A stretch of 32,922 nucleotides of DNA from Clostridiales bacterium. Its GTDB lineage: Bacteria > Bacillota > Clostridia > Christensenellales > UBA3700. Within the stretch, counting starts at the first letter, position 1, and each line of letters opens with the position of its first letter. The translations under genes were made by a program, and so were the position numbers. The notes under the pieces are model-generated. The model had not been told where the DNA came from, searched no databases, and was given only the letters and a program-made list of their open reading frames with translations. The stretch is from NCBI GenBank assembly GCA_014799645.1, contig JAAVHQ010000001.1, forward strand, positions 30,009-62,930, read 5' to 3'. Shown piece after piece: positions 484 through 21,946 of the stretch.

Positions 484-1086
484 TTGAATAAAAAAGTATA
501 TTCATCTTCTATAAAAAAGACACCGTTCAAATATGCTACTTCAAAGAAGATTGCGAAATTAATATTAGATGGATGTGGAAGGCAGGAAGTCTTTGATAAA
601 TGTTATACAGAGAACTATATAGAGATTGAGTCATCGGACCGTCGTAAAGAAATAACAAATGTAGTGTATTCTAGGTTGATTCACATTGACGAATTTTTAT
701 TAAAGCAATTTTATGAAAGTGATGTAGAAACGTCAAAGTTTATTCTAGTATATGCAATAGCAAAGAGTGATGAATTATTCTTTGATTTTATGTTCGAGAT
801 TTATCGAGAAGCGTTATTGGGTAATAAAGATTATATTTCCATTGACGATTTTGATAATTTCTTTGCGGTTAAAAAGGAAACCGATTTAATTGTGGCAACA
901 TGGGGATATTTCACAATTGATCAGTTGGCAAAAGGTTATAGGAATATTCTGGTCGAGTCAGGAATGGGTGTGAGAGATAGGAGAAGTATAAAAGTAACTA
1001 AACTTATGGTACATCCATTAGTGCAAGATTATATTAAGCAAATCGGAGATTCAGAATATCTAAAAGCGTTGTTAGGAGAAAACTAA
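484..1086 (+). CDS. brxA: BREX protein BrxA (DUF1819-like)
   Basis: 200 aa, first gene before brxB and brxC; size, position and the LFFDFMFEIYRE / W...TIDQL...YRNILVESG segments fit BrxA. Confidence 0.85.
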   Translation: MNKKVYSSSIKKTPFKYATSKKIAKLILDGCGRQEVFDKCYTENYIEIESSDRRKEITNVVYSRLIHIDEFLLKQFYESDVETSKFILVYAIAKSDELFFDFMFEIYREALLGNKDYISIDDFDNFFAVKKETDLIVATWGYFTIDQLAKGYRNILVESGMGVRDRRSIKVTKLMVHPLVQDYIKQIGDSEYLKALLGEN

Positions 1087-1087
1087 A

Positions 1088-1693
1088 ATGGCGGAAAGAA
1101 GTTTAAATGATAGATTTGTTGAGCTTGAAGATAGAATGATAAGTGTAGAGGCTTTAACACGTTATGGCACGGCAAATGACTTGAAGTTTTACATATTTGA
1201 TTATAATCCAAAAGATGAGCTTGTAGTTCGAAAAGAGGTTAAGAAGTTAAAAGAGCGAAATCCTAACATAATAGAATTTGATCTTTATGATATGATGATG
1301 CAGATTATCGATGATGAAGGATATATGGAAGATATAATCCGCATGGAGCAAGAGTATGATAGAAAATTATTATTGTCTGAAATTTTTCAACCATTGTTAT
1401 CGGTAGAAGAGGCAGATAATCGATTATTGGAAATGTTTATTGATAGAGCCGAGGATAACGGAGATAAAATAGTTCTTATAACAGGTATTGGGAAATCCTA
1501 TCCCGTAATAAGAAGCCACACTATATTAAATAATTTGCAGAGCATATTTAGACGTAATCCTGTTGTGATGATGTATCCTGGCAGGTTCGAGATAAAGAAT
1601 TTAATGACATTGAGGCTGTTTGAACGGCTTGATGATGACAATTATTACAGAGCATTCCCACTAGTGGAAAGGAGGAAAGGAAATGATTATTAA
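1088..1693 (+). CDS. brxB: BREX protein BrxB (DUF1788)
   Basis: Motifs FYIFDYNPKDE, ITGIGKSYPVIRSHTILNNL, MMYPG and NYYRAF. Confidence 0.92.
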   Translation: MAERSLNDRFVELEDRMISVEALTRYGTANDLKFYIFDYNPKDELVVRKEVKKLKERNPNIIEFDLYDMMMQIIDDEGYMEDIIRMEQEYDRKLLLSEIFQPLLSVEEADNRLLEMFIDRAEDNGDKIVLITGIGKSYPVIRSHTILNNLQSIFRRNPVVMMYPGRFEIKNLMTLRLFERLDDDNYYRAFPLVERRKGNDY

Positions 1694-4600
1694 GGATTTA
1701 TTTAAGAAGGAGATCGATAGAAGCATTCAAGGTGTCGTTACCATTGGTAATGAGGATGAATGCCAAAAATTGCAGGAGCTTGAGGAGTATGTTTGCACCG
1801 ATGAGATAACGAAGTCTTTCCGTACTTTTTTCCGCAAATATAGGGAATCAATTTCTGTTCCAACGGAGAAAATAGGTGTTTGGATAACAGGCTTTTTTGG
1901 TTCTGGTAAGTCACACTTTTTGAAAATACTTGGATATATTCTTGAAAATGAGCTAGTTGTGGGTAATGAAGCGGTAAATTATTTTGAAGAAAAAATACAA
2001 GATCAAATGATTCTTGCCGACATAAAGCAATGTGCTAAAGCTAATAATAAAGTAGTTCTTTTTAATATCGATTCAAAGGCAAAATCAGATTCAAAGAATC
2101 GTTCGCAAGCTATTATGGATATTATGTTGCGCGCCTTTAATGAATCAGTTGGATACTGTGGATCTTCCCCGTGGGTTGCGGATATGGAAAGAACCTTAGA
2201 TAGTGAGAATTTACTGGAAGCGTTCATTAATAAATTTGAGGAATTGTCGGGCAGGAATTGGAGACAAACACGCGCCAAAGCTTTACTTAATCGGGATTAT
2301 ATCATCAAATCTCTTGTTGTGGCTCGTGGCATGAGCGAAGATAGTGCCAAAGATTTTGTTGACGATCAGATGAGACATTTTACAAACACAACAGAGGACT
2401 TTGCAAAAATAGTAAATGACTATTGCAAAAAGAACAAAAAGCGTGTTGTGTTTCTTATGGATGAGGTTGGGCAATTTATCGGAACAAATGGCGAACTTAT
2501 GCTTAACCTACAAACTTGTGTAGAAGATTTAGGCAAATATTGTCGTGGACAAGCATGGGTAGTCGTTACTTCTCAGCAAGAGCTGAAGGCAATGATTGAA
2601 AGTACAAAAGCAAAGCAAAACGATTTCTCGAAGATTCAAGGTCGTTTTGATATACGCCTTTTGTTAAGCGGATCAAATGCGGACGAAGTTATCAAGAAAA
2701 GAATACTAGAGAAAAAGGATATAGCAGTTACGCCTCTTAAGACACTATATGAAACTATCGGAAGCAAGATATCAAATCTTATTCTTTTTGATGGCAGACC
2801 GACTTGGAGTGGGTATGCAGATGCTGAGGAATTCAAGGACGTATATCCGTTTGTTTCGTATCAATTTGAATTATTGCAAAAAGTTTTCGAATCGATACGT
2901 GAGCACGGTATGAGTGAGGGAAAACATCTTTCACAAAATGAGCGTTCGCTTTTGAGTGCTTTTCAAGAATCAGCAAAGAAAATTGCAGATTATGAAACGG
3001 GGATATTAGTCCCATTTGACAGTTTCTATCAAACCATAGAACAGTTTATAGACTACGATATAAAAACAGTATTCTCCAATGCTGAGCGCCGTACAAGTCT
3101 TGATAAATTTGCTATTAGAGTTTTGCGTGTTCTTTTTATGATAAAGCACGTGAAAGAAATGCCGGCAACTATCAATAGACTTGCTACTTTAATGGTTGAA
3201 AGTGTAAACGAAGATAAGGCTGCATTAAAAAATCGTATTTATGAGGCGTTAAAGTTACTAGAAGAAGAAACATTAATACAACGCAATGGAGAAGTATACG
3301 ATTTCTTGACTAACGCAGAGCAGGACGTAAATAAGCAAATTAACAATATGCCCCATAATGAAGGAGATGTGCAAAGAAGCATTCTCGATATTGTATATGA
3401 TAGAGTGCTTGATAATAATAAACTGCGTTATGAAAACCGCTATGATTTTTCTTTGAATCGTATAGTAGATCAAGAGTCTAAAGGTTCATTCAGCCAAGAT
3501 AGTATCACTCTAAAAATCTTTACAAATTTTTCGGATCTGCATGATGAGGCTACTTTTGCAGCCGAATCAGCAAGAACAAATGCTGTGGTAGTTGATATGA
3601 CGGCAGGAACGTATATTGATGAATTGATTCGCGCTAATAAAATTAATATATTTAAACGTAATAATAGCGCATCAATGTCTGCTGCAATGACTGAGATAAT
3701 GAGCAAGAAATCCGCTGAGTATTCCGAGAGAATGAAACGCGCTGAAGATATAATCAGGCAAGTTCTTCGTACAGCTCCTATTTATTTGAATGGTAATAAA
3801 CTTGATATTAAAGAAAAAGATGGAAGAGATAGATTGACAGATGCATTGAAAGAAATGGTCAAGCAAGATTATTATAAGCTTGGACTTGTTTCTTATTTCT
3901 ATAACGATTCGAGAGCAGTATTTGAGGTTCTGGATGATAATATGGAAACAATGTTGGGTAGTGATTTTACGCATGACTCAAATGCTGCTGCATACTCTGA
4001 GATATTCGAGAAGATAAAAAATGATAAGTCCCTAGGTAGAAGAATTACAGTCAAGGGTTTGTTGGATTTCTTTTCTAAGAAGCCTTATGGATGGCGTGAA
4101 ATTGATGTTTTAGGTATGATTGCAACGCTTTGGAAAAAGAGCGCATTACAGATTGTAATACATGAAAATTTGGTTGACGCGAACAACCGTATGTTCAAGA
4201 ACGACTTCTCGCGTAAAAATGGCATTGATACTATGGTTATTAGAATTCAGGAAAAGATTGATGATAATATCCTTTATCAAGTCAAGAAGATAATGCTTGA
4301 TACATATGCCGAGAATTTGCCAATTGAAGAAAAGAAATTGAAAGAAGGTATTGTAAGTTTCTTTGAGCGTAAGCGTGATTTCCTATCTAATCTCAAGGTA
4401 AAGTATGGAGTTGAATATGCAGGCAGTAGAGTAGTTGCTGAAATATATCGAGATTTTGAATCTATTTTACGCTCGACAGACACAATTACGATATTCAACG
4501 AAATCATTTCTCGAAAAGATAGATTGTCTAATCACGCAGAAGAATTAGAGCAATTAGAGAGTTTCTATAAAGAAGGAAGCAATCAACAGCAAAATTATAA

Positions 4601-5219
4601 AGATGCAACATTGATTGCCGATTGGTATCGCGATAACTATATGCTGAATGATTTATCAAATTTATCCGAAGTTATTGATAAGATTAACGAGATACTAGCA
4701 CTCGAAATGCCATTTTCGAAGATGACCGAACTTGCGAATCTTGTTTTTAAGGCAAGAGAAATAAAAGAAACAATTCTTGCAGAAAAGTGTAAGCGAACTA
4801 AAAAGAGTTTGGAAACCGATAGAGATGCAGTCAACAAAGAGATGCGTGAGGCACTTGAACTCGAACTTACTGCTGAGCAAAAGAAAAGAATTGAAGATAA
4901 GGCAGAAGAATTGAATAAAACATATGACTCTTGGTTGGGGAATTTGCTTCCCAATACACCAAATATGGAGGCATACATCACATCTAGCCAGAATGCGCTT
5001 TCGAGATTTAAGGAATTTATTTCAATAATCATTACAGAAAAACGCGCTGGTGTGGAATCTACAAAATCTATTCGTAGCAAACGTGTAAAGGTAATTGAAT
5101 GTGTTCCTGTGGCTAATAAAAAAATAAAGACTAAAGATGACATAGAAAAGGTCGTAGCAACTATTAGGGAAATATTGCTTTCCGAACTCGTCGATAACGA
5201 TGAAATCAACCTTGACTGA
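1683..5219 (+). CDS. brxC: BREX P-loop ATPase BrxC
   Basis: 1178 aa; Walker A GFFGSGKSHFLK, Walker B FLMDEVGQF, FSKIQGRF. Confidence 0.95.
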   Translation: MIIKDLFKKEIDRSIQGVVTIGNEDECQKLQELEEYVCTDEITKSFRTFFRKYRESISVPTEKIGVWITGFFGSGKSHFLKILGYILENELVVGNEAVNYFEEKIQDQMILADIKQCAKANNKVVLFNIDSKAKSDSKNRSQAIMDIMLRAFNESVGYCGSSPWVADMERTLDSENLLEAFINKFEELSGRNWRQTRAKALLNRDYIIKSLVVARGMSEDSAKDFVDDQMRHFTNTTEDFAKIVNDYCKKNKKRVVFLMDEVGQFIGTNGELMLNLQTCVEDLGKYCRGQAWVVVTSQQELKAMIESTKAKQNDFSKIQGRFDIRLLLSGSNADEVIKKRILEKKDIAVTPLKTLYETIGSKISNLILFDGRPTWSGYADAEEFKDVYPFVSYQFELLQKVFESIREHGMSEGKHLSQNERSLLSAFQESAKKIADYETGILVPFDSFYQTIEQFIDYDIKTVFSNAERRTSLDKFAIRVLRVLFMIKHVKEMPATINRLATLMVESVNEDKAALKNRIYEALKLLEEETLIQRNGEVYDFLTNAEQDVNKQINNMPHNEGDVQRSILDIVYDRVLDNNKLRYENRYDFSLNRIVDQESKGSFSQDSITLKIFTNFSDLHDEATFAAESARTNAVVVDMTAGTYIDELIRANKINIFKRNNSASMSAAMTEIMSKKSAEYSERMKRAEDIIRQVLRTAPIYLNGNKLDIKEKDGRDRLTDALKEMVKQDYYKLGLVSYFYNDSRAVFEVLDDNMETMLGSDFTHDSNAAAYSEIFEKIKNDKSLGRRITVKGLLDFFSKKPYGWREIDVLGMIATLWKKSALQIVIHENLVDANNRMFKNDFSRKNGIDTMVIRIQEKIDDNILYQVKKIMLDTYAENLPIEEKKLKEGIVSFFERKRDFLSNLKVKYGVEYAGSRVVAEIYRDFESILRSTDTITIFNEIISRKDRLSNHAEELEQLESFYKEGSNQQQNYKDATLIADWYRDNYMLNDLSNLSEVIDKINEILALEMPFSKMTELANLVFKAREIKETILAEKCKRTKKSLETDRDAVNKEMREALELELTAEQKKRIEDKAEELNKTYDSWLGNLLPNTPNMEAYITSSQNALSRFKEFISIIITEKRAGVESTKSIRSKRVKVIECVPVANKKIKTKDDIEKVVATIREILLSELVDNDEINLD

Positions 5220-5230: not shown

Positions 5231-7120
5231 ATGGATAAAAGAGCATTACAACTTTATGCAATGTGGGCAAAGGATAATTTGGAAAAACAAGTAGAAGTTT
5301 CCTTAAAGATGATTGGTATCAATGGGGACACAGATATCAAAGAATCAAGAGTCATAGGAGATTATACTGTTATTGAGAATGATCCTATTTCATATCCTAA
5401 AGAATTGCATAGTAAGCGTCAAATGATAGTCGAACTTATTAAGAGTGATGGATATAAAACTACAATAGAGGAGTTTGCATATACGTGGTTTAATCGTTTT
5501 GTGTCTTTACGCTTTATGGAGGTACATGACTTTTTGCCGCATGGTTTCCGATTGCTTTCTTCACGAGAGGGTAGTATAGAGCCTGAAATATTAAAGAATC
5601 TTCCGTTTGTAAAAGACGACCTGGAACTTGATTTAACACAATGCGAGAAACTTAAAGCCACAGGAATTGAGGATCTATATAGATATGTGCTATTCCGTCA
5701 ATGCAAGGCATTATCGGGAATATTACCAATGTTATTCGAAGCAGATAATGATTGCTTAGAATTATTATTACCTAAGACGCTTTTACTTGGCGATACAGTG
5801 ATTACAAAACTTGTGGCACTTGGAGAAGATGTGTTCCTCGAAGATATAGAAGTAATTGGTTGGCTGTATCAATTTTATATATCTGCGAAAAAAGACGCTG
5901 TTTATAAAGAAAAGAAGACAATAACAAAAGATACGTTGCCAGCCGTTACGCAGTTGTTCACACCGGATTGGATTGTGCGTTATATGGCAGAAAACTCATT
6001 GGGGAGGCTCTGGTTAGAAAGTTATCCAGCATCCCCATTGCGCAATGAGATGAAGTATTTTGTTCCTGAGGCTGTTCAGCCAGAAGAGGTGCAGCGCAAA
6101 ATTGATTCAGTAAAATATACATCGGTAAATCCAGAAGATATCAAGATAATTGAGCCGTGTTGTGGCTCTGGGCATATCCTTGTATATGTATTTGATTTAT
6201 TATATAAAATTTATGAAGAGAAAGGTTATCAAAAGCGTGATATACCTACGTTAATATTATCCAAAAACATATGTGGTCTCGATGTTGATAAACGCGCATC
6301 GCAGCTTGCAGCATTTTCGCTTGTAATGAAGGCGAGAAGTGTTAATCCTCGGTTTTTTAACTCTAATTATTATGTAAAGCCACAAGTATACGAAATATGG
6401 GATTCTCGTGTACTACATAGAATGAGATATAAGAAATTATTAGAAGAGACAAATCTTCTTTCGGCTGAGCAGATAGAGGATATTGAGTATTTGGCAGAAC
6501 AATTCCGTTATGCTAAAACGATAGGCTCATTACTCAAGATAAAACAAATGAATTGGGACCGCATAGATAACACAATAAATATACTTGAGCAAAAAGTAGT
6601 TTACAACGTGTTTAATCTAGAATTGTTGAATATAGCAATTCCACTTATTAAAAGGCTTGTAGTGCAGGCAAAAATACTTGCAAATAAATATGACGTTATG
6701 ATTACGAACCCGCCATATATAGGTATATCATCAATGGAATCGCAAGTGAAAGACTATGCTGTAACGTTTTATCCAAACAGCAAAACTGATATGTTTGCTA
6801 TGTTTATGGAGACAGAGTTTGTAAAACCAAATGGGTTCTGCGCTATGATAAATATGCACAGCTGGATGTTCCTTTCAAGTTATGAGAATTTGCGCAAGTC
6901 AATTTTGATGACAAAAGAAATAGTAACTATGGCTCATCTGGGTGCAAGGGCGTTTGAGACAATAGGTGGCGAGGTTGTTCAAACGACAACATTTGTAATA
7001 CGCAATGGAAACTTTGGCGGTAACGGAGTTTATTTCAGACTAGTGGATAGCAGTGATAAGGAGAATGATTTCCTTAAAACCCTTAGAAATGCGGGGGGTG
7101 GGGGTACTCTACATAGTTAG
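5231..7120 (+). CDS. pglX: PglX (BrxX) adenine methyltransferase, N-terminal and catalytic part of a split gene
   Basis: AYTWFNR, TQLFTPDWIVRYM, motif I EPCCGSG, motif IV NPPY; stops five codons after the G-tract, at the start of the TRD. Confidence 0.92.
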   Translation: MDKRALQLYAMWAKDNLEKQVEVSLKMIGINGDTDIKESRVIGDYTVIENDPISYPKELHSKRQMIVELIKSDGYKTTIEEFAYTWFNRFVSLRFMEVHDFLPHGFRLLSSREGSIEPEILKNLPFVKDDLELDLTQCEKLKATGIEDLYRYVLFRQCKALSGILPMLFEADNDCLELLLPKTLLLGDTVITKLVALGEDVFLEDIEVIGWLYQFYISAKKDAVYKEKKTITKDTLPAVTQLFTPDWIVRYMAENSLGRLWLESYPASPLRNEMKYFVPEAVQPEEVQRKIDSVKYTSVNPEDIKIIEPCCGSGHILVYVFDLLYKIYEEKGYQKRDIPTLILSKNICGLDVDKRASQLAAFSLVMKARSVNPRFFNSNYYVKPQVYEIWDSRVLHRMRYKKLLEETNLLSAEQIEDIEYLAEQFRYAKTIGSLLKIKQMNWDRIDNTINILEQKVVYNVFNLELLNIAIPLIKRLVVQAKILANKYDVMITNPPYIGISSMESQVKDYAVTFYPNSKTDMFAMFMETEFVKPNGFCAMINMHSWMFLSSYENLRKSILMTKEIVTMAHLGARAFETIGGEVVQTTTFVIRNGNFGGNGVYFRLVDSSDKENDFLKTLRNAGGGGTLHS

Positions 7121-7823
7121 TGCAGAGGTATTCTTTTCTATTCCTAGTAACTTAATTATTTATTGGTTGAGCAATGCTATAATCGAAGTTTTTGGGAAGA
7201 GTAAAACATTGTCATCAATAGCAACTCCAAAACAGGGATTAGCTACTGGTAAAAATGATTTGTTTGTTAGATTATGGCATGAGGTCAAGACTGAAAAACT
7301 TTGCCTGGATGCAACGGACTCTATTCAAGCAGTATCTACTGGGAAGAAATGGTTTCCTTATAACAAGGGCGGGGCATATAGGAAATGGTATGGGAATAAT
7401 GATTGCATTATAAACTGGGAAGCAAATGGTCGAGCGATCAGTAATTATTCTGGATCAGTTATAAGAAATCCAAATTACTATTTCTTTGAGTCAATCTCAT
7501 GGTCCAAGATTGCAAGTGGTCCAATTGCATTTAGATATAAGCCTAATGGACACATATTTGATGTAGCAGGATGCAGTATATTTTGCGAACATTCTCAATT
7601 GGAGTATTTGTTAGGAGCAGTAAACTCTAATGTTATAATGAATATCATAAAATCAACTGCGCCTACACTTAATTATGAGGTTGGTCAAGTAGCAAATATC
7701 CCTATTATTTTCGAGAACGAAAATGCAGTTCGCGAAGTAGTGGACAAAAATATAAAAATAAGTAAAGCGGATTGGGATTCTTTTGAAGAGTCATGGGGCT
7801 TTGGAAAGCATCCACTAATATAA
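7053..7823 (+). CDS. pglX: PglX target-recognition cassette 1, in the +1 frame relative to the methyltransferase ORF (PglX homology begins near 7100)
   Basis: QGLATG..FVRLWHEV, KWFPYNKGGAYRKWYGN, DWDSFEESWGFGKHPLI*; no well-spaced SD for its candidate starts. Confidence 0.85.
   Translation: MIRRMISLKPLEMRGVGVLYIVSAEVFFSIPSNLIIYWLSNAIIEVFGKSKTLSSIATPKQGLATGKNDLFVRLWHEVKTEKLCLDATDSIQAVSTGKKWFPYNKGGAYRKWYGNNDCIINWEANGRAISNYSGSVIRNPNYYFFESISWSKIASGPIAFRYKPNGHIFDVAGCSIFCEHSQLEYLLGAVNSNVIMNIIKSTAPTLNYEVGQVANIPIIFENENAVREVVDKNIKISKADWDSFEESWGFGKHPLI
7093..7104 (+). repeat. Interrupted poly-G tract (G6-T-G5) at the PglX methyltransferase/TRD1 frame junction
   Basis: GGGGGGTGGGGG in AT-rich DNA; losing one base puts 5231 in frame with the ORF ending at 7823. 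Confidence 0.8.
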
Positions 7824-7826
7824 CAG

Positions 7827-7863
7827 CAGGAGGATTATTATTCTCCTGAAAACAGGAGAGAAT
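7827..7863 (+). promoter_or_regulatory. Two alternative hairpins controlling access to the SD of TRD cassette 2
   Basis: ATTCTCCTG (7840-7848) can pair with CAGGAGGAT (7827-7835) or with CAGGAGA (7853-7859), which contains the SD. Confidence 0.6.
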
Positions 7864-8592
7864 ATGCCAAATTTGAAATATGAAACAAAGATGGACACTT
7901 ATAGTAAATTACCGGGTAATCCTATAGCCTATTGGATTGGATTAGACCTAATTAAATGTTTTGAGGAAGGTAAGAGATTTGATTCGTTTGGAGAGCCTAA
8001 GTCTGGGGTTATGACAGGTGATGATAATAAGTTTATTCGCCTTTGGTTTGAACCAATTTCTAAAAAAATTGGGTTCGGTCTTAAGAATGCGATAGAAATG
8101 AAAGAATCTATGAAGAAATGGTTTCCAGTAACGCGTGGTGGATCATATAGGAAGTGGTTCGGTAATCTTGAAGAAATAGTAAATCTAGAAAATGGTGGTT
8201 ATGCTATAAAGAATAATGGCAAGAATTATCGTCTAAGAGATGAAAAGTATTATATGCAAGAAGGACTGACTTGGACAATGATTACGACTACCAATTTATC
8301 TGTACGTATAGCTGAAGCTGGCGTATTATTTGGTAATGGAGGCCCAACAACATTTGTTAAAGAAAAAGAGTATTATTTGCTAGGATTGTTAAATAGTAAA
8401 GTCGTTAATGCAATCGTAAGTGTACTTAATCCTACGATGAATATTGTCATTAGCGACATCTGTTCAATTCCCGTTATTTTTAACAGGGTTGAGCCAGTTG
8501 AAACTATAGTTGCTAATAATCTTGTAATATCAAAATACGATTGGAATGCTTTTGAGACCTCATGGGATTTTAAAAGGCATCCATTAATTTGA
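7864..8592 (+). CDS. pglX: PglX target-recognition cassette 2, a stand-alone ORF
   Basis: Own SD AGGAG and ATG; LPGNPIAYW, KWFPVTRGGSYRKWFGN, DWNAFETSWDFKRHPLI*. Confidence 0.88.
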   Translation: MPNLKYETKMDTYSKLPGNPIAYWIGLDLIKCFEEGKRFDSFGEPKSGVMTGDDNKFIRLWFEPISKKIGFGLKNAIEMKESMKKWFPVTRGGSYRKWFGNLEEIVNLENGGYAIKNNGKNYRLRDEKYYMQEGLTWTMITTTNLSVRIAEAGVLFGNGGPTTFVKEKEYYLLGLLNSKVVNAIVSVLNPTMNIVISDICSIPVIFNRVEPVETIVANNLVISKYDWNAFETSWDFKRHPLI

Positions 8593-8599
8593 GGTAATT

Positions 8600-8920
8600 A
8601 TGATAAGAGTTGTTTTAAAGAGTAAAAAAGAATTACACTATGCCGAGGCAATCATAGATGACAAAGAAACTTTAGTACTAAAAGGTGCAAAGATTAATTT
8701 AATTGAATCTTTTCCGCAAATGTCTCAAGCATTGATTCTATTGCGCAGAGATAGAATGTTAGTATCAGAGGATGGGGTATTGCTCAAAGATATAAAATTT
8801 ACTAGTCCAAGTACAGCTGCGCAGTTTGTTACTGGTAGAAGTGTAAACGGTTATATTGCTTGGCGCCCTAATGACGAAATAAGCCTTAAAGAATATCTTG
8901 GGAAAAGGAGAGAAATTTGA
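8600..8920 (+). CDS. DUF4357 / RAMA-like domain protein
   Basis: Signature DIKFTSPSTAAQFVTGRSVNGYIAW. Confidence 0.8.
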   Translation: MIRVVLKSKKELHYAEAIIDDKETLVLKGAKINLIESFPQMSQALILLRRDRMLVSEDGVLLKDIKFTSPSTAAQFVTGRSVNGYIAWRPNDEISLKEYLGKRREI

Positions 8921-10065
8921 TGAAAGAGACCCTTGTTGCACTTATAGACGATATTTCAAATATAGAAAAACATTTTTATATTCCCTCAATGCCAGCGGGG
9001 GCATTTGCCGTTCCAGTAGAGCAAATTAGCAATAGTCAGGAATTTCAATTATGGAGACAGAAAGTTTTACGTGAGTTGCATGAACTCTATTCTGTACATG
9101 ACAAAGACAAATTTCTAAAAGGGACAATTGAAGCTTTGACAAAAGATTTCAATACTTGGCAAGAACGAAAAGATTTTAATAATCTTAAAGCCAAATTGCT
9201 GGCGATACTAGATAATATCGATGTTTATTATGCGCCTGCAGTAGAAAAAGAGAATCTTGATAAACCTGCAATGATTTTTATCAGTCATTCAACAAAAGAT
9301 AAAGAATATGCGACAGCGTTAGTTAATTTGTTTGAGAGTATGGGATTAGATGAAGATACTGTTTTTTGTAGTTCAGTTCCAGGCTATGATGTAAAATTGG
9401 GAAATGACATATATGAACATCTAAGAAATTTATTTCAGACAAGAGATTTACATATTGTATATATGTTATCTAAGAACTTTTATAATAGTCCTGCAAGTTT
9501 AAATGAAATGGGGGCTGCATGGGTACTTAAAAATGAAGTTACATCTATATTGTTGCCTGGATTTAGTTTCGATGAAATGAAAGGAGTAGTGGATAATCGA
9601 GAAATAGCTATAAAACTAGATGTCGATGAAATAGAATTAAAGGACAAGCTTAATCAGTTATATGAAACAATAATTAACGAGTTTAAGTTGAAGAAAAAAA
9701 GTAGTACACTTTGGGAATGTAAACGTGATTCTTTCATAAAAAGAGTTGTAGGTATACATGGAAGCGTAGAATCCAAAGTGGCTAAGGCAGAGATATTAAG
9801 CAAAGAAGCAGAGGAGATTTTAAAGAATGCTATTCAGAGTTATGATGCACAAATTATTGTTGCTCATTATATAACTGGTGGGAAATGTATTCAAGTAGGC
9901 TGTAAAAGCTATTCGGAATCAATGGGAGCAAGGGAATTTAGTAAATGGGACGCGGCATTTGATGAATTGTTAAGAATCGGATATGTTAAGGCGATTGGAA
10001 CGAAGGGGTCTGTTTTCCAGGTTACAAATGCTGGGTTTAAATATATTGAGGAGAAAGTTAAATAG
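8920..10065 (+). CDS. TIR-domain protein with N- and C-terminal extensions
   Basis: IFISHSTKD, VFCSS.PGY, LSKNFYNSPASLNEMGAAW (catalytic-type Glu); start overlaps the upstream stop as TGATG. Confidence 0.85.
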   Translation: MKETLVALIDDISNIEKHFYIPSMPAGAFAVPVEQISNSQEFQLWRQKVLRELHELYSVHDKDKFLKGTIEALTKDFNTWQERKDFNNLKAKLLAILDNIDVYYAPAVEKENLDKPAMIFISHSTKDKEYATALVNLFESMGLDEDTVFCSSVPGYDVKLGNDIYEHLRNLFQTRDLHIVYMLSKNFYNSPASLNEMGAAWVLKNEVTSILLPGFSFDEMKGVVDNREIAIKLDVDEIELKDKLNQLYETIINEFKLKKKSSTLWECKRDSFIKRVVGIHGSVESKVAKAEILSKEAEEILKNAIQSYDAQIIVAHYITGGKCIQVGCKSYSESMGAREFSKWDAAFDELLRIGYVKAIGTKGSVFQVTNAGFKYIEEKVK

Positions 10066-10075: not shown

Positions 10076-11011
10076 ATGGGTAGATTAATTGAAGATAAGT
10101 ATAGAGCTTGGGAAGAAGAGTGCGAGCAACGATTTAATCAACTCAAGGCAAACGAGGAGGAACTCAACCGTATTTTCATTGAGATTTATGGTCTACAAGA
10201 TGAGCTTACTTCCGAAGTAGAAGATAAGGATATAACAGTGCGCAAAGCTGATTTGCAACGTGAGATTAAGTCACTAATCTCCTATCTTATAGGTGTTGAG
10301 TTTGGTAGGTATTCTCTTGATGTGGAAGGGCTTGTGTATGCGGGCGGAGAATGGGATAGTTCTAAGTACACTACATATATTCCTGATGAAGATGGAATTG
10401 TTATGGTGTATTCTAAACTTGGTATGCAAGATGGACTGGCAGCGCGTATTATTAAATTAATAAAGCATATCTATGGGGAAGATACATATCGTCAAAATAT
10501 AGATTTTATAGCAGAAGCGCTTGGTAAAAAACAGAATGAAGCATCCGAAGAGACATTAAATCGGTATATTTGTGATGATTTCTATACTGACCATTTAAAG
10601 ATTTACCAAAAGCGTCCTATCTATTGGATGTTTTCAAGTGGCAAAAATAGTGGTTTCAAATGTTTGATTTATATGCATAGGTACAATGAAGATACAGTTG
10701 CGAGAATCAATGCAAAGTATTTTCTTCCAGAATCCACTAGATTAAAGAATGAACTTGACGAAATTGAAATAGCGGTGGAAGGCAGTGAAGGACGAGATAA
10801 GATCCGATTGGATAAAGAGCGATCCAAGATAGCCGCTGCTTATAACGAAGCAATTGAATATGGTCAAATACTCGATAATATAGCAAATCAATATATTAAA
10901 ATTGATTTAGATGATGGAGTTAAAGTAAACTATGAAAAATTCCAAAATATAGAGATTGTAACTGACGGTGGAACGAAAGTTAAAAAGAACTTGCTAGTTC
11001 CTATTAAGTAA
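10076..11011 (+). CDS. pglX: PglX C-terminal part, translated separately
   Basis: SD AGGAG 10064-10068 and ATG 10076; RFNQLKANEEELNRIFIEIYGL, FGRYSLD, YQKRPIYW, IDLDDGVKVNY. Confidence 0.9.
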   Translation: MGRLIEDKYRAWEEECEQRFNQLKANEEELNRIFIEIYGLQDELTSEVEDKDITVRKADLQREIKSLISYLIGVEFGRYSLDVEGLVYAGGEWDSSKYTTYIPDEDGIVMVYSKLGMQDGLAARIIKLIKHIYGEDTYRQNIDFIAEALGKKQNEASEETLNRYICDDFYTDHLKIYQKRPIYWMFSSGKNSGFKCLIYMHRYNEDTVARINAKYFLPESTRLKNELDEIEIAVEGSEGRDKIRLDKERSKIAAAYNEAIEYGQILDNIANQYIKIDLDDGVKVNYEKFQNIEIVTDGGTKVKKNLLVPIK

Positions 11012-11021: not shown

Positions 11022-13544
11022 ATGGCAAATATCGATTATCAAGAAGCGATAAAAGAGATAGAGAAGATTTTTCGCGCAGATATTTTAACGCGAAAGATAG
11101 TTTTTTGGTACGATGCTCCTGCTAATTTCAAGGATGATATTGAGACGGCATCGTTTGATTTCTGTAGGCTTTTGGTGTGTCAAAATAATGAATTCGCTAT
11201 AAAGAAAACTATAGAGAAAGATGACACCACAAGCAACATACTTGTCTATATTCCTTCTGAAAAACCGAAGGATACTGAAAATTGGCTTTTGGATATTTTG
11301 ATGTACAGCGAGGAATATTACGCAGATACTGTTGCGCTTACTATGCGCCATCTTGGACTTTCAAATCCAGACTTACGCAAAGTAATAGAAAAGCATACAA
11401 AGTTTTTTGATAGTTCACAAAGAAACAGAAAACTTGAGAATTATGTTTCATTAAATGATGGGATGACTACAAATAATTTTATGCTTGCTATGATATCGGT
11501 ATTAGTAAAATCATCTGTTCGTTCCATAGAGGCTATTTTGACAGAACTTGTTTTTGACAATAGTGATCATTCTAAGTATAAAGAACTTTGCAAGTTTGGT
11601 TTTGAGGATTATCTATGGGATGAAATTGCAAAAGAGTATGATTATTCCGGAGATCAAAAAATAGATAGTCTCATCAAGAAATTTTTGTTTACAGCTATGC
11701 TTGAACAAGATATGCAGCTTGGGACATTGCCGTCATTTTATAAGCAATTTATAATTGATGGAGAAGGAAAAAATGGCGCAAAGAGTTTTGTGCACCATAT
11801 TAAGCAAGATCCACGTTATAGAGAACTGCAACTCAACGTCGCAACAGATCTTAAAATTGATGGGCTTTTGGTGGCAAGAGATGCTAGTTGTATTGGGACG
11901 AGCGATATATTCGAGTGTATTGAGAGTTGCGTGATAAAGAAAGTGTCTGCGAGCTTGGTGAGTGGTAGCCTTGATTATGATGCGTTTGTTAAGATAATTA
12001 ATGATAGAAACAACTCTATGTGGCAAGCTGAACATAAGGATGAGTATTCTTTTTTACGATCGGCAATAGAGTTTTTGCGTTTAGTGGATGTTTCTATTCC
12101 GCATGATTTGTCAGCTGTAGAATATATTAAACTTTATACTAACATATTATATAAAGTCGATATGAATTATAGGCATCTTTGTATTAGCTATGACAAGATA
12201 GAAAATCCCATTTTTGAAATTGAAGAATTATGTTGTAGAATAGAGTCACATTATGAGCAGAATTATTTGGGAGAACTAGGAAGAGAATTCAGCGCAGCTG
12301 TTTCCAAACAAAATAAATGGGATTTCTCAGGTATTCAAAAAAGTTCGCAGTTCTATCAGCTTATTCAAAGGCAACAATATAAAAAGCAGTTTGTAATCAT
12401 TTCTGATGGATTAAGATATGAAGTTGGATATGAGATTTTCAATAGTATTAAGAATAATTCTGCACTGCGAGGCAAGGTCTCGATAGATTATGCAGTTTCA
12501 CCATTGCCGTCTGAAACAAGATTTGGTATGGCATCGCTACTTCCTCATAAAGAGCTTGCTTATATTGACGGATCCGTTTTAGTTGATGGAAAAGCATCAA
12601 ACTCTTTCGCTGCTCGGAATGAGATTCTAAAAGCGAAAAATGCAGGGCATGCTGCAATCGCATACGAAGAAATCAATCGTTTTACAAGAGACCAACTTCG
12701 TGTATACATGTCAGACAAGTCACTTGTGTATATTTATCATAATGTAATAGATAAAGCAGGAGAGCATAACGAAACAAAGGTGTTTGACGAAACGATAAAC
12801 GCAATTGAAGAAATTACATCACTGGTCAAGAAACTTTATAATAATCTACAGATATCTAATTTCTATATCACAGCAGACCATGGTTTCTTGTATAGACAGA
12901 ATGTAATAGGTGAATCTGAAAAATATAGTAATATAGTTTCGCAAAGTCCTATTGAGGCATCAAAAAGGTATGTGCTTACGGATGACGACAGTATTAGTAT
13001 TCCGTACACAACGGAATTTAGACTCGAAGAAATTCACGGAGATTTGCGAGTAATCAATCCGTATGGATATGACTTATTTAAAACACAAGGAGCAGGCTTA
13101 CAGTATGTTCATGGTGGAGCCTCTTTGCAAGAAACAATTATTCCTATTGTGCACATAAGCGAACTTAATGCGAAGAAAGGCGAAAAATTGTCACGCCCAG
13201 TTGGAGTTCGTTTAAAGAGCGTGACAAGAAAGATTACAAATAGGAGTTTCGCACTTGATTTTGAACAATATGAGAAAGTTGAAGATAAAGTACAAGCGAT
13301 TAATTGTGAAACATATTTCGTAGATGAAAATGGATATAAAGTTTCAGGGGAATATCGTTTTATTGCAAACTCTAGCAGTGATGATATCGCCACAAGGGTG
13401 ACTCGTATTAGGTTCACTCTTAAAAATATAGAATTTGATAGAAACAATCGTTACTATCTTATCTTGCGAAATGTAGAATCGGATAGCGAATATATTGAGA
13501 AAGAACAGTTCACGATTGATATTCTAGGATTTAGAACTTTTTAA
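11022..13544 (+). CDS. pglZ: BREX PglZ phosphatase/nuclease-fold protein
   Basis: IVFWYD, IISDGLRYE, LPSETRFGMASLLP, TADHGF, YVHGGASLQE. Confidence 0.95.
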   Translation: MANIDYQEAIKEIEKIFRADILTRKIVFWYDAPANFKDDIETASFDFCRLLVCQNNEFAIKKTIEKDDTTSNILVYIPSEKPKDTENWLLDILMYSEEYYADTVALTMRHLGLSNPDLRKVIEKHTKFFDSSQRNRKLENYVSLNDGMTTNNFMLAMISVLVKSSVRSIEAILTELVFDNSDHSKYKELCKFGFEDYLWDEIAKEYDYSGDQKIDSLIKKFLFTAMLEQDMQLGTLPSFYKQFIIDGEGKNGAKSFVHHIKQDPRYRELQLNVATDLKIDGLLVARDASCIGTSDIFECIESCVIKKVSASLVSGSLDYDAFVKIINDRNNSMWQAEHKDEYSFLRSAIEFLRLVDVSIPHDLSAVEYIKLYTNILYKVDMNYRHLCISYDKIENPIFEIEELCCRIESHYEQNYLGELGREFSAAVSKQNKWDFSGIQKSSQFYQLIQRQQYKKQFVIISDGLRYEVGYEIFNSIKNNSALRGKVSIDYAVSPLPSETRFGMASLLPHKELAYIDGSVLVDGKASNSFAARNEILKAKNAGHAAIAYEEINRFTRDQLRVYMSDKSLVYIYHNVIDKAGEHNETKVFDETINAIEEITSLVKKLYNNLQISNFYITADHGFLYRQNVIGESEKYSNIVSQSPIEASKRYVLTDDDSISIPYTTEFRLEEIHGDLRVINPYGYDLFKTQGAGLQYVHGGASLQETIIPIVHISELNAKKGEKLSRPVGVRLKSVTRKITNRSFALDFEQYEKVEDKVQAINCETYFVDENGYKVSGEYRFIANSSSDDIATRVTRIRFTLKNIEFDRNNRYYLILRNVESDSEYIEKEQFTIDILGFRTF

Positions 13545-13556: not shown

Positions 13557-15581
13557 ATGGACGCATTAGATAAAAAAGTATTTGAGATATTTTCTGGAAG
13601 AGTTGTGCCTAAAGGCGCAACGAAAAAGATTAAAAATAGCGCAAATGTGCCAACGTATGTTTTGGAATATTTGTTGGGTACATATTGTACTTCTGATGAT
13701 GAGGCAGAAATCGAGGAGGGAATAGAGCAAGTAAAACGCATTCTCTCTGATAATTACGTTCGTCCAGACGAAGCGGAGAAAATTAAGGCAAAAATCAAAG
13801 AAAAAGGTAATCATACAGTTATTGATAAATTGAGTGTAAAACTCAATGAAAGAAATGACACTTTTGAAGCCGATTTTATGTTTCTTGGCATTAATAAAAT
13901 TTATGTTCATCCTAAGTATGTTCGCCAATACGAAAAATTACTTGCGGGAGGCATTTGGTGTATTGTCGATATGTCATACTATTTTAATGAGGACGAAAAT
14001 GCTAGTCCATTTATTATAAATGATATTACGCCAATTCAAATGCCAAATCTTGATAAGAATGAAATTATAGAAGCGAGAAAGCAATTCTCAAAGGAAGAGT
14101 GGATTGATTTTATTTTGCGTTCTACTGGTATGGAACCTACTCAATTTGATTATAGAGTAAAATGGCATCTTCTTGCACGACTTGCTCCTCTAGTCGAAAA
14201 TAATGTCAATCTTTGTGAGTTAGGCCCACGTGGTACGGGGAAGTCACATATTTATAAGGAGCTCTCTCCTAATTCAATTTTGATTTCTGGTGGACAGACA
14301 ACAGTTGCAAATCTCTTTTATAATATGGGTAGAAGGCAAGTCGGACTTGTAGGCTTGTGGGATTGTGTCGCTTTCGATGAAGTTGCTGGTATCAATTTCA
14401 AAGATAAAGATGGCGTCCAAATTATGAAAGACTATATGGCCTCAGGTTCGTTTGCTCGCGGTAAGGATGAAATTCAGGCAAATGCTTCTATGGTTTTTGT
14501 GGGCAATATCAATCAAAGCGTTGATCTGCTTTTGAAAACGTCGCACTTATTCGAGCCGTTTCCAAGTGCTATGATAGATAGCGCTTTCCTTGATCGTATG
14601 CATTGCTATATTCCAGGTTGGGAAATCCCAAAGATGCGACCAGAATTCTTTACTGATAATTATGGATTTATATCAGATTATATCTCTGAATTTTTCCGAG
14701 AAATGAGAAAAGTACCGCAAACCGATGCTTTCGACAAGTATTTTAGGCTTGGCAGATGTTTGAATCAAAGAGATACCATTGCAGTAAGGAAAATGGTGTC
14801 AGGATTGACAAAAATTATTTATCCTGACGGAGTTGTCACGGAGGAAGAAATAGAGGAAATTCTGAAATATGCCATTGAAGGACGAAGACGTGTAAAAGAG
14901 CAACTTAAGAAGATTGGAGGAATGGAATTTTATGATGTCCAATTCTCATATATTCGCAATGCTAATATGGAGGAGTATTTTGTACCTGTCTTAGAGCAAG
15001 GCGGTGGTAAATTGATTTCTGAGGGCGTAGGCAAGCCAGGACATATCTACACGGTTGCAAATGGAAGTAATGGAATGAAAGGACTATTTAAGTTCGAGAC
15101 CACGATAGCAGAAGGTAGCGGTAAATTTGAGGTGACAGGATTGACTAGTTCGCAGGTTGTTAAGGAATCTGTCAAAATTGCTCAAAACTATTTTAAGGCC
15201 AATGCAAAACAAATAAGTCGACTCATATCGTTAGATTCCAAAAACTATGTTATGCAAGTACAGGATTGCCAAGGTGTAGGGCTTGATAGCAACGTCTCAC
15301 TTGCCGTCCTTGTAGCATATTGCAGTTGTGCGTTGAATAAATCTGTGTTGCCGCAGCTTTGTGTTTTGGGTGCTATGAGCATAGGCGGAACAATTAATAA
15401 AGTTGAAGAATTAGCATCTACGTTGCAAGTTTGCTTTGATGCAGGAGCGAAAAAAGTACTGTTGCCAATGAGTAGTGCTATTGATATAGCTACGGTACCG
15501 AGTGATTTATTTGCTAAATTCCAAATATCATTTTATAGTAGTCCCGAAGATGCGGTAATAAAGGCTTTGGGGATAGAATGA
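13557..15581 (+). CDS. brxL: BREX BrxL (AAA+ and Lon-like C-terminal domain)
   Basis: NVPTYVLEYLLG, Walker A GPRGTGKS, AFDEVAG, Lon-like C-terminus. Confidence 0.95.
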   Translation: MDALDKKVFEIFSGRVVPKGATKKIKNSANVPTYVLEYLLGTYCTSDDEAEIEEGIEQVKRILSDNYVRPDEAEKIKAKIKEKGNHTVIDKLSVKLNERNDTFEADFMFLGINKIYVHPKYVRQYEKLLAGGIWCIVDMSYYFNEDENASPFIINDITPIQMPNLDKNEIIEARKQFSKEEWIDFILRSTGMEPTQFDYRVKWHLLARLAPLVENNVNLCELGPRGTGKSHIYKELSPNSILISGGQTTVANLFYNMGRRQVGLVGLWDCVAFDEVAGINFKDKDGVQIMKDYMASGSFARGKDEIQANASMVFVGNINQSVDLLLKTSHLFEPFPSAMIDSAFLDRMHCYIPGWEIPKMRPEFFTDNYGFISDYISEFFREMRKVPQTDAFDKYFRLGRCLNQRDTIAVRKMVSGLTKIIYPDGVVTEEEIEEILKYAIEGRRRVKEQLKKIGGMEFYDVQFSYIRNANMEEYFVPVLEQGGGKLISEGVGKPGHIYTVANGSNGMKGLFKFETTIAEGSGKFEVTGLTSSQVVKESVKIAQNYFKANAKQISRLISLDSKNYVMQVQDCQGVGLDSNVSLAVLVAYCSCALNKSVLPQLCVLGAMSIGGTINKVEELASTLQVCFDAGAKKVLLPMSSAIDIATVPSDLFAKFQISFYSSPEDAVIKALGIE

Positions 15582-15634: not shown

Positions 15635-16363
15635 ATGTATAATTTTAAGAATTCAAAATCAAATATAATCAACATATTAAAATCAAAGACTCCAATAGAA
15701 GATAAAGAAAAAATTCCAGCTAATCAAGAATTTACTTATGCCAATGCTGTCAGAACATGGGTAAGTGCAATATTTGTTGATATAAAAAGTTCAAGCGAAT
15801 TATTTAAGAATAGGGATGAGAAATTAGCAAGATTGTTAAGAGCATTTACATCTGAAATTATTACGATTTTTCAAGACTCCAATAACTATAATCAAATAGG
15901 AATTAGAGGCGACTGTGTATATGCAATTTACTCTACTCCCCAAAAGGATGATATTAAAGATGTATTTGATATTGCTGTAAAAACAAATACATTTATGAAA
16001 ATGTTTAACAAATTATTAACAGAGCAAGGTTATAGCAATATTGGAGTTGGCATAGGATTGGGAACTGATAAGCAATTAATTATAAAGGCAGGAAGATCAG
16101 GAACTGGAATAAATGATAAGATTTGGATAGGAGATGCTGTTGTTGATGCCTCGAATTTATCTTCTATAGCAAATAGATACGGCTATAAAAAAATTGCAAT
16201 GAATAGCTGCTTTTACAATAATATTAAAAAGTATTATGAGAAAAAGCCTTGGTTTAATTATATTTCGAATTCAACTTATTATAACGATGGATTTTACGAA
16301 TGCGATATAGTTAACACTGAATTTGATAACTGGATAAAAGGTGGAATGAAAGACAATGTCTAA
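15635..16363 (+). CDS. pycC: Class III nucleotide cyclase, Pycsar PycC-like
   Basis: AIFVDIKSSS, RGDCV, IGVGIG, IWIGDAVVDASNL; overlaps a transmembrane effector gene. Confidence 0.8.
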   Translation: MYNFKNSKSNIINILKSKTPIEDKEKIPANQEFTYANAVRTWVSAIFVDIKSSSELFKNRDEKLARLLRAFTSEIITIFQDSNNYNQIGIRGDCVYAIYSTPQKDDIKDVFDIAVKTNTFMKMFNKLLTEQGYSNIGVGIGLGTDKQLIIKAGRSGTGINDKIWIGDAVVDASNLSSIANRYGYKKIAMNSCFYNNIKKYYEKKPWFNYISNSTYYNDGFYECDIVNTEFDNWIKGGMKDNV

Positions 16364-16859
16364 TGAAAAATTAAATGAAAGTTTGCAAGTAATACAAGGT
16401 CAAATTGAGAAATTTGATAATAAAGCGAGCATTTTAATTGCGATTGTGAGCATAGTATTTGCTATCAGTTTAGAGACGTTAAATGTATTTCAGCAAATAT
16501 TTGTACAAGATATGACACAGAAGATTTTCATTAAATACATATTGGCAATAGTGTTTTTATGTTTTTATTTTACATCTTTTATTCTAGAGATGTTTTTCTT
16601 AATCTTAGTTATTTTTCCTAGGAAAAAGAAAAAGAGTGAGTGTCAGTCACTTTCATATTATTTGGATGTTTCCAAGATGACGAAAGAAGAAATTGAAAAG
16701 CAAGCCAGCGTTATGAATGAATCCGCAATTATAGTGGATCAATTGAGCGTTAATGCAAAAATATGCGCTAAGAAGCACAAGAATTTTGTAATCGCTATAT
16801 GGTTAATGATTCCACTAGTGTTATTTATGATAGCATTAACCTTTTTATCAATAATATAG
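16356..16859 (+). CDS. pycTM: Pycsar transmembrane effector
   Basis: DNKASIL, hydrophobic helices, FPR, ICAKKH and a terminal hydrophobic helix; coupled to the cyclase gene. Confidence 0.8.
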   Translation: MSNEKLNESLQVIQGQIEKFDNKASILIAIVSIVFAISLETLNVFQQIFVQDMTQKIFIKYILAIVFLCFYFTSFILEMFFLILVIFPRKKKKSECQSLSYYLDVSKMTKEEIEKQASVMNESAIIVDQLSVNAKICAKKHKNFVIAIWLMIPLVLFMIALTFLSII

Positions 16860-16874
16860 AATAGGAGAACAATT

Positions 16875-20785: not shown

Positions 20786-20862
20786 AGTCGTTTGGGTAAT
20801 TGATTTTCAAGTGTGAAGATGGCATGCAGTAAGATGTGTGTCATTTTCATATATTTTTGCAA

Positions 20863-21437
20863 CATTGTGAAAAAATTTACAAAGATAGTCTTAACTTTTG
20901 GCTGATTATGGACTTTTATAGCATGGAATCGTTGGAATTTTCAAAAATGTCAAAAAACTTATTTAAAAATACCCTAACAAAATGCCGATTTTTCTCTAAT
21001 AAGTGGAAGGGATATTTTCAGTAGTAAAATATGTTGAGTAAAACTTTCATTTTAGACCGTCAAGTACCACCTAAATTTTCTCTAATAAGTGAGGGGATTA
21101 TGTTAACTAGAAAATTAAAACATTGTGAAAAAATTTTCAAAGTTAACCTTAACTTTTGGCTGTTTTGAACTTTTATAGTGGGGAAAAGTAAAATTTTTCA
21201 AAAATTGCAAAAAAGTTTTAAAAAAACAGGGTGAGAAAGTGCCGATTTTTCTCTAATAGGTGGGAGGTGTTTTAGATTGAGAAAAATTATCTAAAAATTT
21301 TGGAAAAAGACCGTGGACTAAGTGCCTGATTATCTCTAATAAGTGAAGGGCGAAATATAATGCTTTCAAAAAATGTTAAACGAATTTCATTTATGCACCC
21401 CGAAAAATCAACAGGAAGTGTCCATTAATAGTGAGGG
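20863..21437 (+). repeat. Array of about seven degenerate ~85-bp units, with a higher-order ~257-bp duplication
   Basis: TCTCTAATA(A/G)GTG plus a G-run at 20993, 21079, 21250 and 21333; variants near 20914, 21171 and 21421; CATTGTGAAAAAATTT..CTTAACTTTTGGCTG at 20863 and 21121. Confidence 0.8.
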
Positions 21438-21760
21438 ACAAAGTAATTGGGTTAATTAGTGAATAAGGTATGTAGGGAAATAGATGAATAATGAACTAAT
21501 TGTACGTTCCTAAGATTTACCTAAAATGTCCATAAAAAAGAGACAGCAAAAGACCCCCAAAAAGAAGAAAATGAAGAGAATAGAGGAGGAGTGAAATGTA
21601 GAATATATAAGGCTAAAATACCCCAAAAGGGAAGCAGGATAAGGAGTAGACTCAATTTGCCGTCACAAGACGATTTCGTCTACTCAAAAAACTACGGAAG
21701 CGGGATACCCGCCTTCGTTCTGGGAGAACCAAAAAAGACATAAAAAATGGAGGAAAATAA

Positions 21761-21946
21761 ATGGAATTATTTAAAGACTATCCCGACGTTGTAAGTGTTG
21801 AACAAGTGTCGGAGATGTTGCACATTGGACAAGTGCTTGCATATAGACTTGTCCGCAGCGGTGAGATTAAATCACGCAAAGTAGGACGCAGATATATCAT
21901 CGCAAAGCGAAACGTAATCGAATTTATAAATGAGGAGGCAGCATAA
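21761..21946 (+). CDS. Excisionase-like helix-turn-helix protein (HTH_17)
   Basis: 61 aa, YPDVVSVEQVSEMLHIG...YRLVRSGEI..RKVGRRYII; SD GGAGG; coupled to the integrase gene. Confidence 0.88.
   Translation: MELFKDYPDVVSVEQVSEMLHIGQVLAYRLVRSGEIKSRKVGRRYIIAKRNVIEFINEEAA

Follow-up and report, generated by a model that had tools for sequence, protein, structure and literature searches.

How might a bacterium that encodes two target recognition domains (TRDs) in tandem for one methyltransferase choose between them? This question is raised by a 32,922-nt stretch of DNA from a Clostridiales bacterium (contig JAAVHQ010000001.1 of assembly GCA_014799645.1; hereafter the window), in which the PglX protein of a bacteriophage exclusion (BREX) operon is split over several open reading frames (ORFs): a methyltransferase core ending at a G tract, TRD1, a free-standing TRD2 and a separate C-terminal (C) domain. 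TRD1 and TRD2 are separated by a 40-nt spacer with three arms, of which the middle one can pair with either of its neighbors. We found that this three-arm element is real, conserved with compensatory changes, and unique in the genome. We propose, while rating its chances at slightly below even, that it is an inverse-coupling switch that would control the accessibility of the TRD2 ribosome-binding site (RBS) according to whether TRD1 is being translated.

The spacer begins after the TRD1 stop codon (TAA, 7821-7823) and consists of CAG, CAGGAGGAT (7827-7835, arm 1), TATT, ATTCTCCTG (7840-7848, arm 2), AAAA (7849-7852), and CAGGAGA (7853-7859), the Shine-Dalgarno (SD) sequence of TRD2 and body of arm 3, with the TRD2 ATG at 7864. 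A first-pass annotation of this DNA had proposed that arm 2 takes part in one of two hairpins, and direct reading of the sequence bore out all of the coordinates it gave, including the placement of arm 1 at 3 nt after the TRD1 stop. Each of the nine base pairs claimed for hairpin A (7827-7835 with 7840-7848) is present, one of them a G-U (G7833-U7842), and the helix has a predicted energy of -12.5 kcal/mol. Hairpin B was described as a 7-bp helix of 7842-7848 with 7853-7859 that buries the SD (-10.4 kcal/mol). That helix is there, but it is longer than was stated: pairing extends over 7841-7848/7853-7860, 7836-7839/7861-7864, which includes the A of the AUG, and 7832-7833/7867-7868. This extended B is the minimum free energy (MFE) fold of both 7815-7875 and 7815-7880 (-16.4 kcal/mol, z -3.52), and none of 200 dinucleotide shuffles was as stable; without arm 1, B has an energy of -11.6 kcal/mol. 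Folding of both conformers showed that they are mutually exclusive, as had been claimed, their probabilities summing to approximately 1. In a 66-nt context P(A) was 0.002 and P(B) 0.99, and in contexts of +/-60 to +/-250 nt the values were 0.04-0.09 and 0.91-0.96, respectively. In the nascent RNA comprising 7815-7852, A makes up 90% of the ensemble (z -4.9). As in an attenuator, then, there are two mutually exclusive helices, one of which buries both the SD and the start codon.

The spacer fold exceeds chance. Shuffles of the sequence 5′ of the SD produced three arms in 4 of 20,000 trials for the window and in 2-6 of 20,000 trials per locus when all of the homologous loci described below were treated in this way. 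The scan used a strict same-register criterion, by which the real spacer of locus L013 passes as an anti-SD hairpin and not as a three-arm element; its helices draw on arm-2 registers shifted by 1-2 nt, yet they overlap and are mutually exclusive. Of the 845 SD-plus-start candidates in the 1.68-Mb genome, 17 had a 7-bp anti-SD hairpin, and three arms were found at the spacer site only (in two registers). The spacer is also the sole junction in the operon longer than 12 nt, the eight others being 12 nt or shorter or overlapping. Membership in an Rfam family was rejected, as the best matches scored 18 and 17.7 bits against gathering thresholds of 100 and 50. We likewise rejected an intrinsic terminator (GC-rich stem followed by a U run), with 0 such sites in 6900-8800, and an internal promoter, with none on the + strand in the same interval. 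Given this lack of promoters and terminators, TRD2 is probably co-transcribed with the upstream genes.

To find homologous loci we used TRD2 as the query. A scan of genome contigs yielded L010, a contig from a metagenome-assembled genome, and a scan of metagenome contigs yielded 210 relatives, from which we retained the best 80. Whole-genome searches at the level of the phylum (401 genomes), the class (400 scored of 401), the order (401) and the relatives of genome G651 (151) added only G651 as a second genome with tandem TRDs, and viral contigs gave no match in either a protein-pattern or a DNA-pattern scan. The architecture of core, G tract, TRD1, TRD2 and C domain was found in six further contigs (L010 to L015) and in G651 (loci L121 and L127). 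In a tree of the PglX core these loci form one clade (100/100 support) apart from three outgroup PglX proteins, two of them fused and one split before the C domain, and the closest sequences within the clade are those of the window and G651 (80% amino acid identity). The junction stretches compared in L010, L014 and L015 are identical except for one spacer base and one base before the tract. L012 and L013 share an identical spacer, and both of these contigs begin near it.

The spacers of L011, L012/L013 and G651 are 34-37 nt long and contain the same three arms as the window, with CAGGGAG or CAGGAAG as arm 1, CTTCCTG as arm 2, and CAGGAGG or TAGGAGG as arm 3, the SD. Arm 1 begins 2-4 nt past the TRD1 stop in all four loci. 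Conservation of the arms was one of the points on which the first-pass annotation had staked its proposal, and on this point the proposal held. We anchored the arms by script to tabulate the pairs, because MAFFT alignments misplaced arm 1; the four distinct spacers contribute 28 cells to the 7-bp core of each helix, and every one of these is paired, in A as well as in B. Arm 2 of the window differs from that of the other three loci by two adjacent changes, which are matched in arm 1 and in the SD. There is thus a compensatory double change in each helix: in A, an A-to-G change in arm 1 converts A-U to G-C, and in B, a G-to-A change in the SD converts G-C to A-U. All six of the non-Watson-Crick cells are G-U on the sense strand, where the opposite strand would have A-C mismatches, and this points to an RNA structure of the sense strand. 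The loops vary in sequence and length among the four loci, and in every locus further pairs, formed by the loop of A with the segment from SD to AUG, extend helix B, in sequences that differ from locus to locus. The three homologous spacers have z-scores of -3.7, -3.1, and -4.8 (0, 1, and 0 of 200 shuffles as stable). Just 62-75 of the 120 nt in the last 40 TRD1 codons are identical between loci, and neutral (synonymous) sites are saturated. The three-arm element looks to be under selection. In contigs assembled from sequencing runs (four DNA runs of one study), X2 is identical to the window across the spacer, and X3 and X4, which derive from related strains, span it.

Whether ribosomes reach the TRD1 stop codon would depend on the G tract. 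In the window the tract is G6TG5, and the frame of the N-terminal part of PglX (PglX-N) reads AGGGGTLHS before a stop at 7118-7120, 14 nt past the tract. TRD1 lies in the +1 frame, which agrees with the earlier statement that the tract places it outside the PglX-N frame; one G fewer would fuse TRD1 to the core. Tracts at the same position have G9 in L010 (in frame), G10 in L014 (out of frame), and G12 in L015 (in frame), while the translations of these three loci are 100% identical over a 243-aa TRD1 match. L011 has G11, in frame, and G651 has G9, out of frame, such that the tract is in frame in three of six contigs. In every out-of-frame state the core stops 5-9 codons past the tract. Variation of tract length among near-identical loci, with a consequent switch of frame, is what identifies phase variation by simple sequence repeats, and on this comparison the tract can be classed as hypermutable. 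Logan contigs from three runs of one study break at the tract (X2 ends at 7080, X3 starts at 7104, and X1 starts at 7106), a weak hint that would fit either length heterogeneity or poor assembly of the homopolymer.

We then considered what a ribosome terminating on TRD1 would do to the spacer. In the four loci the energies of B without arm 1 (-10.1 to -13.9 kcal/mol) and of A (-11.9 to -13.2 kcal/mol) differ by no more than 2.3 kcal/mol, and direct-path barriers between them are 9-16 kcal/mol (findpath upper bound). Opening the region from SD to AUG is predicted to cost 4.6, 5.2, 5.7, and 8.5 kcal/mol when arm 1 is free, values corresponding to the 58th-91st percentile of 1211 gene starts in the genome, which were crude ORF calls. 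The window value is ordinary (rank 504 of 1211), and it appears that arm 1 makes it so, as A forms in compensation. The footprint of a ribosome with a stop codon in its A site corresponds to a mask extending to +12 or +14 nt, counted from the first nucleotide of that codon. Masking arm 1 to this extent raised the cost to 9.9-14.8 kcal/mol (95th-99.5th percentile), an addition of 4.2-9.3 kcal/mol in all four loci. With masks reaching +12 to +16 nt, B persisted and the probability that the window SD is unpaired was 0.001-0.006, versus 0.014-0.076 with arm 1 free; the unfolding that classical coupling relies on was not seen. A footprint of this established size would cover 6-8 nt of arm 1 across the loci and 6-7 of its 9 nt in the window, placing the competitor arm within reach of the ribosome on the upstream ORF, as in attenuators. 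It would extend to approximately 7833, short of the B core (7841-7860), and the ribosome should consequently not melt B but only remove A. The predicted geometry is compatible with inverse coupling and speaks against the classical kind, which works by unfolding. Of the earlier claim that a terminating ribosome favors the SD-hiding fold, the geometry and the masking cost are thus upheld, while the coupling itself is a prediction.

In the switch that we propose, arm 2 would pair either with arm 3 (B, with SD and AUG hidden) or with arm 1 (A, with the SD free) and in this way set the accessibility of the TRD2 RBS. A ribosome finishing TRD1 would cover arm 1 and close the sole cheap route to an open SD, and the mRNA would stay in B. 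When the tract is out of frame, ribosomes would stop approximately 700 nt upstream, A would form first on the nascent transcript, and TRD2 could be initiated. Since three of the four loci have B as their ground state, the switch would have to be kinetic or else act through an approximately 10-40-fold shift of a minor open state. On the kinetic route, the nascent RNA would initially adopt A, which a passing ribosome would convert to the more stable B. With the tract in frame, cores would carry TRD1 in cis, and free TRD2, having no partner, would be damped. With the tract out of frame, the lone 629-aa core may join TRD2 and the shared C-domain protein in trans. The G tract could then be a one-base specificity switch between core plus TRD1 in cis, with TRD2 silenced, and core plus TRD2 plus C domain in trans, with the mRNA element enforcing exclusivity. 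This broader scheme we regard as possible but doubtful.

Several observations weigh against the proposed switch. The first-pass annotation had assumed that A wins when arm 1 is free, and this was not borne out: extended B dominates at equilibrium without a ribosome in the window (P(A) 0.04-0.09), in L011 (0.03-0.05), and in G651 (at most 0.004), and L013 alone favors or balances A. A ribosome occupies the stop codon only briefly, so that the effect requires B to persist; the barriers predicted for this are 9-15 kcal/mol, again as a findpath upper bound. The covariation, one double change per helix, comes from only three to four independent spacers. The TRD2 ORFs of L013 and G651 share their first codons, with an N-terminal extension (MNTAT...) that is similar in the two, and are preceded by similar spacers (L013 307-350; L127 2242-2290), although their bodies are only 45% identical; the two spacers are probably one recombined allele, which leaves about three independent samples. 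L010, L014 and L015 keep the G tract and both TRDs without the RNA element, their spacer being 14 nt long and unstructured (z +0.6) with the SD directly after the stop. Loci L075 and L066 encode two TRD modules as well, with tightly spaced junctions that lack a switch. From these loci and the L010 lineage it follows that the RNA element is at most a refinement and not a requirement.

Some of these same observations can be accommodated without any influence of TRD1 translation. The spacer could be an SD-hiding hairpin with a built-in relief arm. Here B would keep TRD2 low, while arm 1 would either adjust the opening cost to an ordinary value or remain single-stranded and act as an SD-like standby site for 30S subunits. 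In line with this explanation, B is the ground state in three of four loci, a free arm 1 leaves the opening cost close to the genome median, and arm 1 is SD-like in all four loci. It does not, however, explain why arm 1 keeps a fixed distance of 2-4 nt from the stop in four loci, nor why the element is restricted to the TRD1-TRD2 junction, and we hold it to be unlikely. Coupling might also be positive: B would block de novo initiation, and ribosomes finishing TRD1 would be captured by arm 1 and re-initiate at TRD2, such that the two TRDs are made together. According to a review of translational coupling (PMC12548453), structure often silences the downstream genes of coupled pairs and coupling occurs over approximately +40 nt, if less efficiently. 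Relatives of this locus co-express two TRD modules. The same review reports that structure right after the stop correlates negatively with coupling. Moreover, unfolding of a B core at 7841-7860 is not expected from a terminating ribosome that ends near 7833 and, if all in-frame cores carry TRD1, TRD2 would be left without a free partner. Positive coupling therefore appears improbable to us.

It may also be that the spacer has no function as RNA: its arms could have arisen by duplication of the SD, or be a conserved DNA handle for recombinational exchange of TRDs at the cassette boundary. Arms 1 and 3 are near-identical direct repeats, and the L010-type spacer resembles the product of a deletion between them. 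The TRD bodies are mosaic not only between L013 and G651 but also between the window and G651, which have 80% identity in PglX-N and 39% in TRD2, and TRD cassettes appear to be exchanged by recombination. A recombination handle requires no hairpin, however, and here the stems are kept while the loops vary, both helices show compensatory changes, and the mismatches are G-U on the sense strand only. We give this explanation a low probability. The TRD2 frame of the window is open from 7819, as would be needed if the post-stop hairpin were a recoding signal that drives frameshifting or read-through to fuse TRD1 to TRD2. We rejected this idea, which has a negligible chance of being correct, because the frame offset between TRD1 and TRD2 is inconsistent among loci (+1 in the window, L011 and L013, 0 in G651, and +2, equivalent to -1, in L010), and G651, the sole in-frame case, has a second in-frame stop inside the spacer. 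The inverse-coupling switch is the explanation that we carry forward.

The surrounding genes place the element in a type 1 BREX locus, as assigned by gene content, with BrxA, BrxB, BrxC, PglX, PglZ and BrxL in a single operon (Table 1). Pfam matches in the operon comprise the BrxA, BrxB and BrxC domains, Eco57I/N6_Mtase, PglZ, BrxL_N, BrxL_ATPase, and Lon_C.

Table 1. Coordinates of the BREX operon and of the tract and spacer elements within the window.
Feature	Position	Strand	Basis
BrxA	484-1086		Pfam, ORF list
BrxB	1088-1693		Pfam, ORF list
BrxC	1683-5219		Pfam, ORF list
PglX N-terminal + methyltransferase core ORF, 629 aa	5231-7120	+	Pfam Eco57I, N6_Mtase, MmeI_Mtase; ORF list
G6TG5 tract, methyltransferase/TRD1 junction	7093-7104	+	sequence reading
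TRD1, 237 aa, stop TAA 7821-7823	7110-7823	+	tblastn map; similarity to TRD2
Arm 1, SD-like competitor (anti-anti-SD), 3 nt past TRD1 stop	7827-7835	+	
Extended B, conformer hiding SD and AUG, full extent	7832-7868	+	MFE -16.4 kcal/mol, z -3.52
Arm 2, anti-SD, partner of either arm 1 or arm 3	7840-7848	+	
Arm 3, TRD2 SD sequence	7853-7860	+	
TRD2, free-standing ORF, 242 aa	7864-8592	+	ORF list; similarity to TRD1
PglX C-terminal domain, separate ORF	10076-11011	+	homology to post-TRD part of fused PglX
PglZ	11022-13544		Pfam, ORF list
BrxL	13557-15581		Pfam, ORF list

TRD1 and TRD2 are 36% identical over 238 aa (E 2e-57), and the start of TRD2 aligns with the residues of TRD1 that directly follow the G tract. 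The start of the C-domain ORF was taken as the methionine of MGRLIEDKY, at 10076. A separate ORF likewise encodes the C domain in L010 and L011, and in ordinary relatives TRD and C domain are fused, in proteins of approximately 1150-1250 aa. TRD2 orthologues have ratios of nonsynonymous to synonymous substitution (dN/dS) of 0.07-0.26, indicative of purifying selection, with dS ranging from 1.5 to saturated. At E<=1e-20, 127 proteins of 133-424 aa match TRD2, some of which may be frameshifted TRD1-type ORFs; roughly 15 of the matches are standalone TRD2-like proteins with 59-81% identity. Together with other modular layouts in relatives, these findings suggest that the separately encoded pieces of PglX are in use. 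We made no use, in either direction, of a predicted complex of PglX-N residues 250-620, TRD2 and the C domain, as a control with chain 1 replaced scored equally high. Its alignments had 46 rows for PglX-N, including 45 of the 48 hits; 47 for TRD2, including 46 proteins picked from the 120 listed according to length and coverage; and 46 for the C domain, including 45 of 81 hits.

Other arrangements of the same modules were observed. L075 (2385-6677) encodes a core, a free TRD and then a TRD fused to the C domain, and L066 (3029-8350) encodes a core followed by two TRD-C fusions; both have short junctions and no G tract. In genome G059, L008 (10472-12305) and L009 (1-2778) show a short PglX that stops directly after the TRD and a separate C-domain ORF, and two contigs end within the PglX region, one of them beginning inside another TRD copy. 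Six metagenome loci (L017, L026, L036, L051, L052, and L053) have extra TRD copies on the opposite strand beside PglX, of the shufflon type known for PglX. A 15-nt exact direct repeat (7343-7357 and 8112-8126, 769 nt apart) lies at homologous positions of TRD1 and TRD2, in the KKWFP motif, and is the longest stretch identical between the two cassettes. In the window, genes for a DUF4357 protein (8600-8920, 106 aa) and a TIR-domain protein (8917-10065, 382 aa) are inserted between TRD2 and the C-domain ORF; L010 and L011 have no insert at this place, and L012 and L013 have different DNA of approximately 0.8-1 kb. Downstream of the BREX operon is a defence island (15635-25793) with a Pycsar-like pair, consisting of a weakly matching cyclase-like protein and a PycTM effector (15635-16859), a Gabija-like pair of an OLD-family ATPase/TOPRIM protein and a UvrD-like helicase (16875-20785), a tyrosine integrase (21946-23598), and AbiH (24528-25793).

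In the trp attenuator, as with the erm leader peptides, the position of a ribosome on an upstream ORF selects which helix forms. The spacer resembles such attenuators in having exclusive helices, one of which sequesters the downstream RBS, and in that the position of the upstream ribosome would decide between them. It differs in that the upstream ORF is a 240-aa functional domain and not a leader peptide, the signal would be a slippage tract that lets ribosomes arrive and not stalling by a drug or amino acid shortage, and the terminating ribosome would switch the downstream gene off. Ribosome-position-dependent translational attenuation with a sequestered downstream RBS has also been described for mycobacterial polycysteine short ORFs (bioRxiv 10.1101/834739). 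Translational coupling by RNA unfolding, as in rpmI-rplT and MS2 coat-lysis, is positive (reviewed in PMC12548453), and negative coupling is not described in the accessible part of that review. These pairs share with our locus a downstream RBS buried in structure and an upstream ORF that ends within tens of nucleotides of it. The sign expected here is the opposite, since the ribosome would cover the competitor arm and not the inhibitory helix.

Parts of the system have precedents in print, namely tract-based on/off variation, shufflons, and a two-part split of PglX. On/off phase variation of pglX/brxX through a homopolymeric tract has been reported (PMC6326788), and there, as here, a length-variable G tract lies within a BREX methyltransferase gene; in our locus it lies exactly at the boundary of methyltransferase and TRD, with a second, free-standing TRD after it. 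PglX shufflons swap the variable middle part of the protein while the N- and C-terminal parts stay constant, and in Brevibacterium casei the break in PglX falls where the variable region stops (Milman et al., NAR 2023, PMC9881135). Exchange of the middle part and a split where the variable region ends are thus common to both, whereas shufflons use invertases and inverted cassettes and our locus has tandem TRDs on the same strand, a slippage tract and an RNA element. In the type I hsdS gene of NgoAV, slippage of a poly-G tract reportedly alters the recognition module and hence specificity, as opposed to turning the enzyme on or off. NgoAV belongs to a different enzyme family and, to our knowledge, has neither a second free module nor an RNA switch. 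A 2026 survey of BREX diversity (PMC12839542) does not mention split PglX or tandem TRDs in its accessible part, and we found neither tandem free-standing TRDs nor an intervening RNA element described in the accessible main texts of the BREX/PglX literature, supplements aside (PMC12839542, PMC9881135, PMC6326788). The proposed spacer switch would thus be translational attenuation in an altered form, set within a new modular and phase-variable PglX.

If our interpretation is correct, a single DNA slippage event would lead to refolding of an mRNA and thereby to a clean choice between two defence recognition modules, and BREX in this organism would flip between two methylation and defence motifs. 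The spacer would be a natural device for inverse translational coupling, adding a negative form to a field in which mostly positive coupling has been described. PglX would be built from core, TRD and C-domain proteins that are encoded apart, and this would offer a natural template for re-targeting BREX by exchange of a 240-aa module.

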